This document shows positions 32,152 to 40,281 of a DNA stretch of 51,438 nucleotides, piece by piece; the stretch's first letter is position 1; the number at the start of each line of letters is the position of its first letter. The position numbers and the translations under genes were made by a program. Below the pieces are notes generated by a model, which was not told the DNA's origin, did no database searches, and saw only the letters and a program-made list of their open reading frames with translations. Source of the DNA: a phage; the sequence record PZ754631.1. One strand, written 5' to 3'.

Positions 32152-32853
32152 ATGAGTAAAGAAACTGAAGTGACATTTGAACAAATAGAACGAGAAACAT
32201 TCATTGGCAATGCTCTTGCTACTGGAGGCCATTACCAGGCCGTTAAACCAAATCAATATTATAAAGTCACTGGCAACCGCTATAACGGCAGCAATACGCC
32301 GGACGTTGTGCGAGATTTGTGGTCTACGCCGTCTGAGCTTGTCGCATGGATGGAAATCGAATACGGTGATTATGACATCGACGCGGCGGCAAGCAAAGAA
32401 AATGCTGTATGTGAAAAATTCTACAGCAAGGAAACAAATTGCTTAAAGCGTTGGTGGGGTAGTAATAAGCATATATGGCTGAATCCACCGTACAGCAATA
32501 TTACGCCATTTGTTAAGAAGGCGATTGAGCAAATGGAGCACAACAACCAGATCGACATTCTGTTACCTTGCGACACATCAACAGGATGGTTTTATGAGGC
32601 GCAACAGCACGCAGCGGAAATAATCTGGATCACTGGAGAAGTTTACCAGGAGGACGGAACAGAATATTCCCGTACCGGACGCCTGGCGTTCACTTCAGCG
32701 CTTACAGGCAAACCAGTGCAGGGTAACAATAAAGGAAGCGTTATTTTCATCATGCGCGAACTTAAAGAAGGCGAGCAGCAGAAAACGCGATACGTTAAGA
32801 TCAGCGACATTTGCCCTTCAGTGGCAGAGCGTCGCGCACGGAAACGGAGCTAA
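32152..32853 (+). CDS. dam: DNA N6-adenine methyltransferase (phage Dam-type)
   Basis: 233 aa with catalytic NPPY motif (LNPPYSN). Confidence 0.7.
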   Translation: MSKETEVTFEQIERETFIGNALATGGHYQAVKPNQYYKVTGNRYNGSNTPDVVRDLWSTPSELVAWMEIEYGDYDIDAAASKENAVCEKFYSKETNCLKRWWGSNKHIWLNPPYSNITPFVKKAIEQMEHNNQIDILLPCDTSTGWFYEAQQHAAEIIWITGEVYQEDGTEYSRTGRLAFTSALTGKPVQGNNKGSVIFIMRELKEGEQQKTRYVKISDICPSVAERRARKRS

Positions 32854-36582: not shown

Positions 36583-38166
36583 TTACCCCAGCAATGTTGG
36601 ATTTACGAAAACAACGCCATTAATCACGCAAATATAGTTTCTTTCCTCAAGCATCGGAAGCAGTTGCGTTTCCATGCGCTTCATTACGCCAGCCTGACCA
36701 ACAAACGGCTTAACTTTTCGTGCAGCCTCATATATGGCGCGAACATTCAAGATTCCCTTATTAGCCTTTCCGTGTCGAGTGATAATCTCGATTAGTTTAC
36801 CCATTTCAGCATCATCACCAGCGTAGCCAGAAGCGTTGGCGGCGCTAATGTATGTTTTGCTCAACTCGCTAAACATCAGCAGTGCTTCCTGAACGGTTTC
36901 AACCTCAATCTCTTTCGACTTTTGAGGGTATCCACCAGGATTAAACCAATTGCGGATAGTGTGCAAAACTGAAGCAATCCTGATCACCTGCTTATCCATT
37001 TTGCCAAGCGCACCGCGCAGCATTGTATGCGAATACTTTCCTCCATCAGCAAGGTGCGGCTCCATCTCCTGACGAGCCATGTTAAGAACTCGCATTGCTG
37101 ATTTGCTGATCTTAAGCTGGATGTTTGATTCACTCATGATGTTATGGATCAGCTTAAAATATTGACTTTTCAGTTCTCCATCAACAGGCTCATAAGTCGA
37201 ATCACCGTTATCATCAACAAACTTTCTACGGCCTAAAAATGATTCCTCACGCACAAGCAAATAACGCTCACTTACACCGATACCGCGCGATCCTGCATCC
37301 ATGATGGCATTGATTGTTTCATCCTGGGCAATTACCGCCATACAGCCAAGAGCTTTAAAACTCATATTGTTGTCAGCGTTTGCACGAGCTATAGAAACAT
37401 GACCATGATCCCATGCTTTCAGCACAAGTTCGCTGTTGGTTTTACGTTCGCTATTGGCATATGTCAGACCTAAAAGGCTGTTAATACTCGTTGCCTCGTC
37501 TGAAATCACAGCAAAGTTACCCTGGCGATTGTTGATTCTTGCAAGTCCTTCCGGCGTGGTGTCGGACACAGGGAAAACGATGTCACACATCTTTTCCAGC
37601 TTTTCTTCCAGATCTTCTTTCTCCTGGTACAGAGATTCCATATCAGCGCCGGAACGCTCGCTTTTCATCTCTTTTGCAAGACCTGCCAACTTTGCCTGAA
37701 TCTTTTTTCTTTCCTTCTTTCGCTGATCGTTAATTCTTTCCACTTCCGCAACCATTGGAGCAAGTGCCAGGCTGTTAACGGCAGATTTACCAGTTGAAGG
37801 AGGCTGGCTTGTGACAACATAAAGAGCGGTCGGCTGATCCGTTCCGTGATACTCAACCGTGAAGCGTCCAAGCATTGCAGCAGACACGCAGCCGATAAAA
37901 TGCATATATGCCGATGATTCAGGGAACTGAACTGATCGAGCAATGTTGCGCGCCAACTTTCCAACAACATCAACATCATTGCCAAGAGAAATTACAGGGT
38001 AGCGATCGTTTCCGTTATTAACATCATTAACCTCACCCCAAAAGCTGGACGATTGACGGTATCCGTTTGCCTGAATGGACACGCGCACCGGAGACAATCC
38101 TTGTGCATCAGCTAATTCGATAATTTGTTTTGGTGTTAGTTTATTGGTTTCAAACGAAAAATTCAT
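36583..38166 (-). CDS. P-loop NTPase (primase-associated/D5-like ATPase candidate)
   Basis: 527 aa from MNFSFETNK (RBS AAGGAG); Walker A-like PPSTGKS and Walker B-like FAVISDE; Lys/Glu coiled-coil insert; own promoter module. Confidence 0.6.
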   Translation of the reverse strand: MNFSFETNKLTPKQIIELADAQGLSPVRVSIQANGYRQSSSFWGEVNDVNNGNDRYPVISLGNDVDVVGKLARNIARSVQFPESSAYMHFIGCVSAAMLGRFTVEYHGTDQPTALYVVTSQPPSTGKSAVNSLALAPMVAEVERINDQRKKERKKIQAKLAGLAKEMKSERSGADMESLYQEKEDLEEKLEKMCDIVFPVSDTTPEGLARINNRQGNFAVISDEATSINSLLGLTYANSERKTNSELVLKAWDHGHVSIARANADNNMSFKALGCMAVIAQDETINAIMDAGSRGIGVSERYLLVREESFLGRRKFVDDNGDSTYEPVDGELKSQYFKLIHNIMSESNIQLKISKSAMRVLNMARQEMEPHLADGGKYSHTMLRGALGKMDKQVIRIASVLHTIRNWFNPGGYPQKSKEIEVETVQEALLMFSELSKTYISAANASGYAGDDAEMGKLIEIITRHGKANKGILNVRAIYEAARKVKPFVGQAGVMKRMETQLLPMLEERNYICVINGVVFVNPTLLG

Positions 38167-38193
38167 TGGTGATAACTCCTTTTTGATGCGGCA

Positions 38194-38239
38194 ATAATAC
38201 CGCACCAATGCTACCCGCATTTAACAAAAAATGCTATTT
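38194..38239 (-). promoter_or_regulatory. early promoter cassette (minus) driving P-loop ATPase gene
   Basis: minus strand AAATAGCATTTTTTGTTAAAT, ~19 bp, TATTAT. Confidence 0.45.
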
Positions 38240-38869: not shown

Positions 38870-38915
38870 ATTATGCCAGGCTTTTACACCTGGCTTTTAA
38901 CAAAAAGTGCTATTT
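38870..38915 (-). promoter_or_regulatory. early promoter cassette (minus)
   Basis: minus strand AAATAGCACTTTTTGTTAAAA, 19 bp hairpin (GCCAGG..CCTGGC), CATAAT. Confidence 0.5.
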
Positions 38916-39620
38916 TGCGTTTGCTTCAAAGACTGCGCGAGCAAAACCGCGCGGAGTGAGGGAGCGGATCATCTTTGTGCGAGATGATTTTCCGCCAGTT
39001 TTGGCCCAACCTGGATTATCCTTGTCGCCATCTTTAGGAATGATTGTTGCGCGCGGAGGAATAACAAATCCGTTTCCAGTCCAAAGGCATGTTTTCTTAA
39101 AGTACCGATCCCGCGCCGGAATAATATCAGGGAAGTCGGGATGCTTATCATCTTCCGGCAGATAGCCAGCATAATCGCACGGATGGAACGTATAATCAGG
39201 CTTTCGCCATAACGTTGACAACTTGCCAACCGGATTTTCGATCATGTAAGGAACACCGAAATAATCAGCTATATCAGCCGCGATCCTGCAAGTGTCGGCG
39301 GCCTCATCCTGGAATGATGGATTCTCAAGGCGCTTTTTGGCCCAATGGCGAGATCCGCTATTTGCAAGGTCGGTGCACGGCGGAAATGCCATAATAAAGT
39401 CAGGAATACCCCATTCCTCACAGCGCGCGCGGTGGTAAAATATTTCATCAATCCAGACGTTAACGTATTCGATATTCTCATGCTGTATGCGCACTGAGTG
39501 GTAATCACCGTGATCAGCATCATCGTAATTAAAGCAAATGCATTTATATCCAGCACCAGCCCAATCTTTAACGGCTTTACCAGATCCATCAAACAAAGAG
39601 AAAATTAAACCCTTATACAT
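38910..39620 (-). CDS. compact C5-cytosine methyltransferase-like protein
   Basis: motif I-like LFDGSG, motif IV-like FPPCTDLANSG (Cys present, Q replaced by T), motif VI-like ENPVG, motif IX-like LTPRGFARAV; 236 aa, no obvious target-recognition domain. Confidence 0.55.
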   Translation of the reverse strand: MYKGLIFSLFDGSGKAVKDWAGAGYKCICFNYDDADHGDYHSVRIQHENIEYVNVWIDEIFYHRARCEEWGIPDFIMAFPPCTDLANSGSRHWAKKRLENPSFQDEAADTCRIAADIADYFGVPYMIENPVGKLSTLWRKPDYTFHPCDYAGYLPEDDKHPDFPDIIPARDRYFKKTCLWTGNGFVIPPRATIIPKDGDKDNPGWAKTGGKSSRTKMIRSLTPRGFARAVFEANAK

Positions 39621-39629
39621 TTCATCACC

Positions 39630-39854
39630 TCAAAACGGAAAGCATCGTGGGCAGTTAGGATCGAAGTTGCAGCCGCAATCATTTACAATCATGGTTGGAT
39701 CTGCAAATGCAGCGCCGCATTCGTGATCCATATCCATTTCACCAAGCGCATCATCAAGCTTTCTGATCTTATATGCAACTTCAAGAGCGGCCTCTTTATT
39801 CAGCCCAGCATCTTCCGCTTTTTGCAGTCGCTCAAAAAATCCGTCCTGGCTCAT
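39630..39854 (-). CDS. hypothetical Cys-rich small protein
   Basis: 74 aa; C-terminal CGCNFDPNCPRC cluster. Confidence 0.5.
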   Translation of the reverse strand: MSQDGFFERLQKAEDAGLNKEAALEVAYKIRKLDDALGEMDMDHECGAAFADPTMIVNDCGCNFDPNCPRCFPF

Positions 39855-40250: not shown

Positions 40251-40281
40251 TATGCGATCCTCGTTCGTTGTCGATGCGCTT

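Follow-up and report, generated by a model that had tools for sequence, protein, structure and literature searches.

The genome of a phage deposited as PZ754631.1, a stretch of 51,438 nucleotides that was analysed at its full length and is called the window here, raises the question whether a protein of only 236 residues, which carries motifs of the DNA cytosine-C5 methyltransferases (C5-MTases), is a working enzyme, and if so which DNA it modifies and what the phage gains from it. Among the T1-like siphoviruses, the window phage falls in the Hanrivervirus group (Drexlerviridae, Tempevirinae), with ~93% nucleotide identity to phages herni, egaa, pSf-1 and JakobBernoulli. The gene, called dcm in the following, lies on the minus strand at 38910..39620 (711 bp; ATG start, 236 residues and a stop codon), where an earlier reading made from the letters alone (the sequence-only reading) had placed it. 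We assign a probability of about 0.85 to the reading that dcm encodes an active stand-alone, S-adenosylmethionine (AdoMet)-dependent DNA C5-MTase of a compact, phage-borne, DNMT3-like family. The gene, the activity and the consequence for a retron defence system are already known from published work; the finding is real and the function an ordinary one.

Evidence from a published retron trigger

The window protein is 92% identical, over 236 residues and with no gaps, to the Dcm of phage KarlJaspers Bas06 (QXV82308), from which it differs by 19 substitutions, none of them in the conserved motifs; KarlJaspers and the window also have the genus-level phage group and the genomic slot of the gene in common. 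Phage K42, in which the enzyme was studied, is a strain of KarlJaspers with a genome 95.4% identical to that of Bas06 and a dcm gene of 711 bp (Wang et al., bioRxiv 10.1101/2023.08.16.553469; peer-reviewed as Cell Rep 43:114857, 2024). The length of the gene is thus the same in K42 and in the window, and the K42 residues C82, E128, K175 and K176 are found at the same numbering in the window protein.

When escapers of K42 were selected on retron Ec86, 4/4 carried a disrupted 711-bp dcm, and in two of them the base 9 bp upstream of the start of dcm had changed from dC to dA (bioRxiv 10.1101/2023.08.16.553469). The window has a Shine-Dalgarno sequence, GAGGTGA, at 39625..39631 (minus strand), 4 nt 5' of the ATG, which is kept in JakobBernoulli and KarlJaspers, and position -9 is the third base of its GAGG core, so that the -9 escapers of K42 would most simply be ribosome-binding-site mutants. 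Assuming that the reported strand is the one relative to which K42 dcm lies on the minus strand, the change would be G to T on the coding strand, within that core. Expression of Dcm was toxic only with Ec86 present and caused no growth defect in MG1655 without the retron (bioRxiv 10.1101/2023.08.16.553469). LC-MS (liquid chromatography coupled to mass spectrometry) against a 5-methylcytosine (5mC) standard found high 5mC in the multicopy single-stranded DNA (msDNA) of the retron with wild-type Dcm, and not with a C82A/E128A/K175A/K176A variant or an empty vector, and defence was lost once the stem-loop CCTGG of the msDNA had been mutated (bioRxiv 10.1101/2023.08.16.553469). In the same collection, 34/35 Ec86-sensitive phages encode Dcm (bioRxiv 10.1101/2023.08.16.553469), and later papers treat Dcm as an established trigger of retron Ec86/Eco1. 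The formation of 5mC, its dependence on C82, E128, K175 and K176 and the triggering of the retron were all demonstrated by others on the K42 enzyme; by orthology, the window Dcm is expected to activate retron Ec86/Eco1 through methylation of the msDNA stem-loop.

The sequence-only reading had left two options, a minimalist cytosine methylase or a C5-MTase fold repurposed for another base or substrate. The 5mC data on K42 Dcm together with the 92% identity to Bas06 Dcm support the first, and the second gives way to the LC-MS result that K42 Dcm makes 5mC on DNA. The novelty that it implied does not hold either, since the gene is named dcm in TLS and labelled 'Dcm-like C5 cytosine methyltransferase' in the BASEL phages and has been characterised as the trigger of retron Ec86/Eco1.

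Fold and superfamily membership

The fold, the conservation, the family size, the synteny and the identity to KarlJaspers Bas06 Dcm come from the present analysis. The fold together with motifs I, IV and VI places the window protein in the C5-MTase superfamily. AlphaFold2, run on the alignment of the family, gave a confident model (predicted local distance difference test, pLDDT, 91.1; predicted template modelling score, pTM, 0.89) that shows all seven class I methyltransferase strands and is weakest at residues 191-220, with pLDDT of 70-84 in 10-residue blocks. Foldseek against the PDB returned DNMT3A, DNMT3B or DNMT3C chains for all of the top 50 matches, with E-values down to 1.4e-7. The structure prediction that had been proposed as a check on the sequence-only reading thus gives a C5-MTase fold with DNMT3B/3A as best matches, and near-identical twins among the predicted viral structures are annotated as DNA-cytosine methylases.

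Sequence comparison reaches less far. Pfam PF00145 matches 20/38 close family members (E<=10), the best of which, P0109, scores 25.4 bits against a gathering score of 22 bits over model positions 4-81, which cover motifs I-IV only. The window protein itself stays below the PF00145 threshold, and its place in the superfamily rests therefore on transitive homology and fold; it also has neither a canonical target-recognition domain (TRD) nor a motif X. The only solved proteins reached by sequence were DNMT3B/3A and M.HaeIII, with marginal E-values and over motifs I-IV (hhalign gave 57% probability against DNMT3A over these motifs), and there was no significant sequence match to M.HhaI. For motifs VIII-X, comparisons by hhalign and hmmsearch with M.HhaI and DNMT3A aligned motifs I-IV only, even with an 85-sequence profile.

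The nearest solved relatives are the catalytic domains of DNMT3A and DNMT3B (PDB 5yx2, 6u8p, 6kdl), at only 15-18% identity. The DNMT3 domain has ~285 residues, a TRD of ~60 residues and a full motif IX-X region that forms the dimer and tetramer interfaces, whereas the phage protein stops 6 residues past its motif IX-like segment; DNMT3 acts on CpG. E. coli Dcm is counted among the canonical bacterial type II C5-MTases. Compared with these enzymes (E. coli Dcm, M.HhaI, M.HaeIII), the window protein is ~90-240 residues shorter, has PCT instead of PCQ and ENP instead of ENV, is apparently without an in-register QxRxR, and has no large TRD and no GN(A/S)V motif X. The label 'Dcm-like' describes a presumed function and not kinship with the host Dcm, because the window protein has no NCBIfam match (E<=10).

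A C5-MTase fold could also act on another substrate or transfer another group, as in a DNMT2-like tRNA m5C methyltransferase or a cytosine C5-carboxymethyltransferase. We regard this as very improbable here, since the 5mC placed on msDNA by the K42 enzyme is active-site-dependent (LC-MS, bioRxiv 10.1101/2023.08.16.553469), the best structural matches are the DNA enzymes DNMT3A/B, dcm adjoins Dam genes and one family member is fused to an N6-adenine DNA methyltransferase.

Motifs and conservation in the compact family

Orthology and synteny put the window protein in the compact phage Dcm family, PHROG 757 ('DNA methyltransferase'), which matches it with E=1.1e-84 over residues 2-235; a hidden Markov model of the family matches it over positions 1-229 with 315 bits. 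By tblastn, 1,502 phage records contain homologs (phages of Escherichia, Klebsiella, Salmonella, Shigella, Vibrio, Xanthomonas and other genera), and the family falls into 3,147 clusters when grouped at 90% identity and into 2,095 when grouped at 50% (E<=1e-3). One annotated member is dcm (gp75) of TLS, which is 67% identical and syntenic and has the compact length and the motifs of the family. The genes labelled 'DNA cytosine methylase' in other Drexlerviridae, in Vequintavirus-like phages and in Klebsiella Webervirus phages belong to PHROG 757 as well and, like that of TLS, are known by annotation only. Public labels of dcm orthologues range from 'hypothetical' and 'DNA methyltransferase' to 'dcm' (TLS gp75) and 'Dcm-like C5 cytosine methyltransferase' (BASEL phages).

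The four motifs named by the sequence-only reading, LFDGSG, FPPCTDLANSG, ENPVG and LTPRGFARAV, are all present in the translation and in the order claimed. Their conservation was counted in 85 diverse family members that are 33-57% identical to the window protein, in which C82, E128, P147, Y173, W180 and P188 are invariant (85/85) and F79, P80, T83, G89, N129, P130, D171, K175, T177, R219, S220, P223, G225 and A229 reach a conservation of 90% or more. Motif I, the loop behind strand beta-1 that binds AdoMet (L9-F-D-G-S-G14; 39579..39596, minus strand), pairs through F10-D-G-S-G14 with 'SLFDGIATG' of DNMT3A/B in HMMER and hhalign alignments, and the consensus in the family, [FY]-D-x-[TS]-G, is less strict than FxGxG. 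Motif IV (F79-P-P-C82-T83-D-L-A-N-S-G89; 39354..39386, minus strand) aligns with 'SPCNDLS' of DNMT3A/B and contains the catalytic nucleophile, Cys82 (codon at 39375-39377, minus strand), followed by Thr83 in the place of the usual Gln. The Thr at this position, which the sequence-only reading had singled out, turns out to be a hallmark of the family (Thr in 77/85 members, the canonical Gln in 1/85), and it is not disqualifying because the bona fide enzymes DNMT3A/B have Asn there in the alignments. Motif VI (E128-N-P-V-G132; 39225..39239, minus strand) stands at the end of predicted strand beta-5 (strand E125-129 in the AlphaFold2 model) and has the variant form ENPV instead of ENV, with E128 in 85/85, N129 in 81/85 and P130 in 84/85 members.

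Two further segments were assigned by eye. A motif VIII-like segment (R170-D-R-Y-F-K-K-T-C-L-W180; 39081..39113, minus strand) leads into strand beta-7 and is similar to 'RARYFWGN' of DNMT3A. It contains D171 (81/85), Y173 (85/85), K175 (84/85), T177 (84/85) and W180 (85/85), while R172 is poorly conserved (Ala in 52/85) and no profile alignment to M.HhaI or DNMT3A reached this segment. A motif IX-like segment (R219-S-L-T-P-R-G-F-A-R-A-V230; 38931..38966, minus strand) on the C-terminal helix fits the pattern R-x-x-T-x-R-E-x-A-R-L-Q-x-F, with Gly225 at the position of the usual Glu, and resembles 'RKLHPRECARVM' in the verified sequence of M.HhaI. The segment is highly conserved (R219 83/85, S220 78/85, P223 81/85, G225 83/85, A229 80/85) and likewise lies beyond the reach of the profile alignments.

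Could the gene then be a degenerate, catalytically dead relic of a methyltransferase? The protein is short, falls below the Pfam and NCBIfam thresholds and is without motif X and TRD, as a relic might be; yet the catalytic Cys and Glu are invariant in 85/85 members of a family of about 2,100 clusters at 50% identity, the open reading frame (ORF) is intact in 46/48 loci with both exceptions artefactual (see below), and LC-MS activity has been published for K42 Dcm, which together make a dead enzyme hardly credible.

A small enzyme by family trait

Most full-length family members have 210-260 residues and cover the whole profile, which indicates that the small size is a family trait and not a truncation; the remark that the protein is much shorter than typical DNA C5-MTases thus applies to the whole family. 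Between W180 and R219 the window protein has 38 residues (family median 36, range 28-70), compared with ~100 residues for the TRD-equivalent segment in M.HhaI and ~60 in DNMT3A by our own count on verified sequences. In the AlphaFold2 model and the family alignment this slot, residues 181-218 (38967..39080, minus strand), forms a loop and two short helices and looks like a vestigial target-recognition segment; in agreement with the sequence-only reading, a separate small TRD was not encountered in these 38 residues. Motif X, whose absence had also been noted, has no room: only 6 residues follow the motif IX-like segment before the protein ends, and family members have a median of 9 residues (range 5-33) beyond residue 230, so that a canonical GN(A/S)V cannot be present. 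Asn234, found in 63/85 members, could be a remnant of motif X, though in the model it sits at the end of a helix and not at its start. The family also has an extra conserved stretch of ~25 residues between beta-6 and beta-7.

Larger relatives exist but are rare. Among longer members (P0254, P0260) the core is fused to a D12-class N6-adenine methyltransferase (563 residues) or has an HNH_2 insertion (348 residues), and the compact C5 core is also found inside phage proteins of 1,126-1,397 residues (BFVD A0A6J5SE15, A0A6J5NPY6), one of which is annotated with a helicase N-terminal domain.

A tentative extension, which we consider possible though more doubtful than not, is that the family represents the smallest known autonomous architecture of a DNA C5-MTase, a DNMT3-like core without TRD or motif X that would read DNA through the conserved insertion between beta-6 and beta-7 (residues 148-176) and the 36-residue segment after beta-7 or through DNMT3-like obligate oligomerisation, with a specificity or substrate preference perhaps unlike that of host Dcm, for instance in how far the central base or hairpin DNA is tolerated. 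A specificity that differs from that of the host enzyme would, if true, explain how the retron tells phage Dcm from host Dcm in a dcm+ cell. As an enzyme of 236 residues that seems to be site-specific without TRD or motif X, the protein offers a compact model for DNA reading by C5-MTases and a possible small methylation 'writer' for tools, with mammalian DNMT3 as its closest solved relatives.

Target sequence

The target of the window Dcm is most likely the inner C of CCWGG, an assignment that the K42 work likewise assumed; no methylome or measured specificity for the compact phage Dcm family was found in the literature. The window contains 126 CCWGG sites, compared with 48.7 expected from dinucleotide shuffles, and does not avoid them. 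In each of the 48 T1-like sequences in which dcm is intact, CCWGG exceeds its first-order Markov expectation, by factors of 1.45-3.86, and the observed/expected (O/E) ratios in the dcm-less phages T1 and RTP are 1.59 and 0.83, respectively.

E. coli MG1655 is dcm+, and BL21, the native host of the retron, is dcm-minus. In the MG1655 control the msDNA was low in 5mC and the retron was not self-activated, for which the preprint gives no explanation (bioRxiv 10.1101/2023.08.16.553469). That host Dcm does not trigger the retron may be due to a difference in specificity, in substrate access or in expression level.

An alternative is that the enzyme is an active DNA C5-MTase whose target is not strictly CCWGG, and which, having almost no TRD, may read a shorter or degenerate site (CCNGG, CC/GG half-sites) or prefer hairpin or mismatched DNA, the msDNA stem-loop being one example. 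The specificity is assumed and not measured, the recognition segment has only ~36 residues, and a 5mC content of msDNA that is low in MG1655 and strongly raised by the phage enzyme is easier to understand if the targets of the two enzymes differ. In addition, CCSGG is purged in the window (3 sites) and in TLS (0 sites), with ~35 expected, while CCWGG is kept, and an enzyme that acts on CCNGG would explain this purge if methylated C-mC-GGG is hit by methyl-dependent restriction; the specificity of McrA is Y-mC-GR. On the other side, every CCWGG site is miscalled in phage 2019SD1 (see below), all dcm+ relatives have kept or even enriched their CCWGG sites, and the purge of CCSGG is not tied to dcm, since 17/46 dcm+ loci have normal CCSGG levels. 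MG1655 is McrA+ and McrBC+, and the lack of a growth defect upon expression without the retron disfavours widespread new R-mC or Y-mC-GR methylation. Finally, mutation of the msDNA CCTGG ended the defence (bioRxiv 10.1101/2023.08.16.553469). With this evidence a target other than CCWGG appears unlikely, but by no means negligible, and methylation of CCWGG is kept as the preferred assignment.

The scarcity of CCSGG is an observation in its own right. The two forms CCCGG and CCGGG are nearly absent from the window and TLS, against the first-order Markov expectation given above, and also from 29/46 dcm+ T1-like loci (L008-L058), while T1 has 65 sites; CCGG overall is not avoided in the window (84 sites). 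The purge was considered as a dcm-linked trait and rejected because of the 17/46 dcm+ loci at normal levels, and it is lineage-specific. It suggests that a restriction enzyme specific for CCSGG or CCNGG has acted as the selecting force, with CCWGG sites exempt. Several other palindromes are avoided alike in the window, T1 and TLS, namely GCCGGC (0 sites, 9.3 expected), TCCGGA (1 site, 19 expected) and ACCGGT (1 site), as well as GGCC (O/E 0.53), AGCT (0.64) and CTAG (0.55).

An artefact of nanopore sequencing at CCWGG sites

Three T1-like loci have essentially zero CCWGG, two of them with a seemingly decayed dcm, and the apparent joint loss of dcm and CCWGG (L056 and L058; nominal Fisher p about 0.005) was rejected as a sequencing artefact. 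L058 is Shigella phage 2019SD1 (MT360681/NC_049820), a dcm-carrying Hanrivervirus that was assembled from nanopore R9.4 reads only with Albacore and Canu. Measured against a relative with 92% identity, this genome keeps 0/34 CCWGG sites, compared with 20/27 control GCWGC sites; in their stead it has deletions centred on the motif and stereotyped substitutions, alongside homopolymer errors. L056 (IMGVR_UViG_2974785742; nearest relatives STSR3, Vc1 and HCF1) shows the same pattern, with 0/21 CCWGG sites kept, and the 'frameshift' in its dcm is a length error in a T homopolymer. Base modifications are known from the literature to cause such nanopore errors as a general principle. Errors at Dcm sites specifically are a feature of Albacore-era nanopore data. 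The pattern is thus indirect evidence that the virion DNA of 2019SD1 is modified at essentially every CCWGG.

The third locus, L045 (IMGVR_UViG_3300048920_000084, a metagenomic T1-like contig of 11.6 kb), has 1 CCWGG and 0 CCSGG sites, with 15.7 and 12.1 expected; its dcm slot lies past the contig end, and at 70% identity to its relatives it is too divergent to tell natural avoidance of CCNGG from a sequencing artefact. For the mining of phage databases the artefact is misleading in three ways, as it creates false dcm pseudogenes, false avoidance of CCWGG and inflated CCSGG counts.

Points that weigh against an active CCWGG methyltransferase

Several observations have to be set against the reading of the window gene as an active C5-MTase of CCWGG. 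The window protein has no Pfam or NCBIfam match even at E<=10, profile searches connect it with solved C5-MTases only marginally (E=0.17) and over motifs I-IV alone, and no canonical motif X or TRD was found that would complete AdoMet binding and sequence reading. The identity of the window protein was measured against Bas06 Dcm, which, as the Dcm of the closest public relative, stands in for K42 Dcm. The inactive K42 Dcm is a quadruple mutant, so that no residue was tested singly, and the CCWGG target was adopted from the literature on host Dcm and not mapped (both bioRxiv 10.1101/2023.08.16.553469). The unexplained low 5mC of msDNA in the MG1655 control counts here as well, and the signal in 2019SD1 cannot separate phage from host methylation. 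As to the role of the enzyme, the BASEL work on the Drexlerviridae did not see restriction resistance go along with the number or kind of methyltransferases.

Proposed mechanism and biological role

CCWGG specificity, the anti-restriction role and the functions of residues beyond C82 and E128 are inferred. Judging from the chemistry of the family and from which residues are conserved, it is the P-C-T loop's Cys82 that would attack C6 of a flipped-out cytosine, Glu128 of E-N-P would protonate N3, and the methyl group of AdoMet would then be transferred to C5. The beta-7 segment (D171, Y173, K175, T177, W180) and residues 181-218 would touch the DNA and so replace a full TRD. Expressed from the leftward block of replication genes, the enzyme would methylate the DNA of the phage along with whatever other DNA the cell contains, and the most likely benefit is a shield from restriction of the CCWGG/CCNGG type in hosts that have no Dcm of their own or one that works too slowly. 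A side effect would be methylation of the CCTGG stem-loop of the Ec86/Eco1 msDNA, which would switch on the filament-bound effector and abort the infection; the triggering of the retron means that dcm is also a liability for the phage.

The enzyme may be active and nevertheless be selected for something other than anti-restriction, such as the timing of phage expression, replication or packaging, or the countering of a non-restriction defence. The missing correlation in the BASEL data speaks for this. So do T1 and RTP, which do without dcm, and the dcm-loss escapers of K42, one of them with a 2.3-kb deletion, which are viable on laboratory hosts (bioRxiv 10.1101/2023.08.16.553469). A conserved hairpin with two CCWGG sites directly 3' of dcm points in the same direction. 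It is a 7-bp hairpin, GCCAGGU-GUAAAA-GCCUGGC (38875..38894, minus-strand transcript), located 15 nt 3' of the dcm stop and identical in JakobBernoulli and KarlJaspers, with an RNA fold of -15 kcal/mol (z=-3.5); it has no T-run and the terminator scan did not flag it, and it could be an RNA-stability or methylation-sensitive element. Against such a role stand the retention of dcm in about 1,500 phage records from several families despite the triggering of the retron, and its co-occurrence with Dam, the classical anti-restriction pairing; moreover, EcoRII is unmentioned in the BASEL panel, and CCWGG-specific restriction may lie outside it. A role apart from restriction is therefore considered improbable, and protection from restriction is kept as the preferred one.

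For annotation, 'Dcm-type C5 cytosine methyltransferase, predicted retron Ec86/Eco1 trigger' would be apt. It carries the predictions that the phage is sensitive on hosts with Retron-Eco1 such as BL21 and that escapers lose dcm.

Gene neighbourhood

In the window dcm is part of a minus-strand block near a DUF3987 helicase gene (36583..38220), in the order helicase, two small ORFs, dcm. The same order on one strand is found in JakobBernoulli, KarlJaspers and TLS, and among helicase-anchored T1-like loci from IMG/VR it is kept in 46/51. In the loci that span the slot, the dcm ORF is intact in 46/48, and both exceptions are the sequencing artefacts described above.

Directly upstream of dcm lies an ORF of 74 residues (39630-39854, minus strand) with a Cys-rich C-terminus (CGCNFDPNCPRCFPF), which has no Pfam match and is kept in relatives (bas07_0055). 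Its TGA stop overlaps the Shine-Dalgarno sequence of dcm, which suggests translational coupling. The small protein was considered as a specificity subunit and found unlikely, as K42 Dcm alone was enough in the published assays and distant homologs of Dcm have other neighbours.

The Dam-type gene that the sequence-only reading had reported elsewhere in the genome is present at 32152..32853 on the plus strand and encodes an orphan Dam-type N6-adenine methyltransferase of 233 residues (Pfam PF05869 Dam, E=7.6e-61), a companion of dcm in the methylation repertoire of the phage. Its target GATC is not avoided in the window (O/E 0.99 under a maximal-order Markov model; 275 sites against 186 from dinucleotide shuffles). 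GZ7 and DIBBI, two unrelated phages, likewise have a Dam-type gene beside or near their compact dcm, and in phage Mingus a second annotated DNA methyltransferase, the type of which is unstated, adjoins the compact dcm.

Compared with JakobBernoulli, the window is without a 645-bp cassette at about 40257-40262 that holds a putative homing endonuclease gene (bas07_0059) and two small ORFs, and the cassette is a clean presence/absence polymorphism between the two phages.

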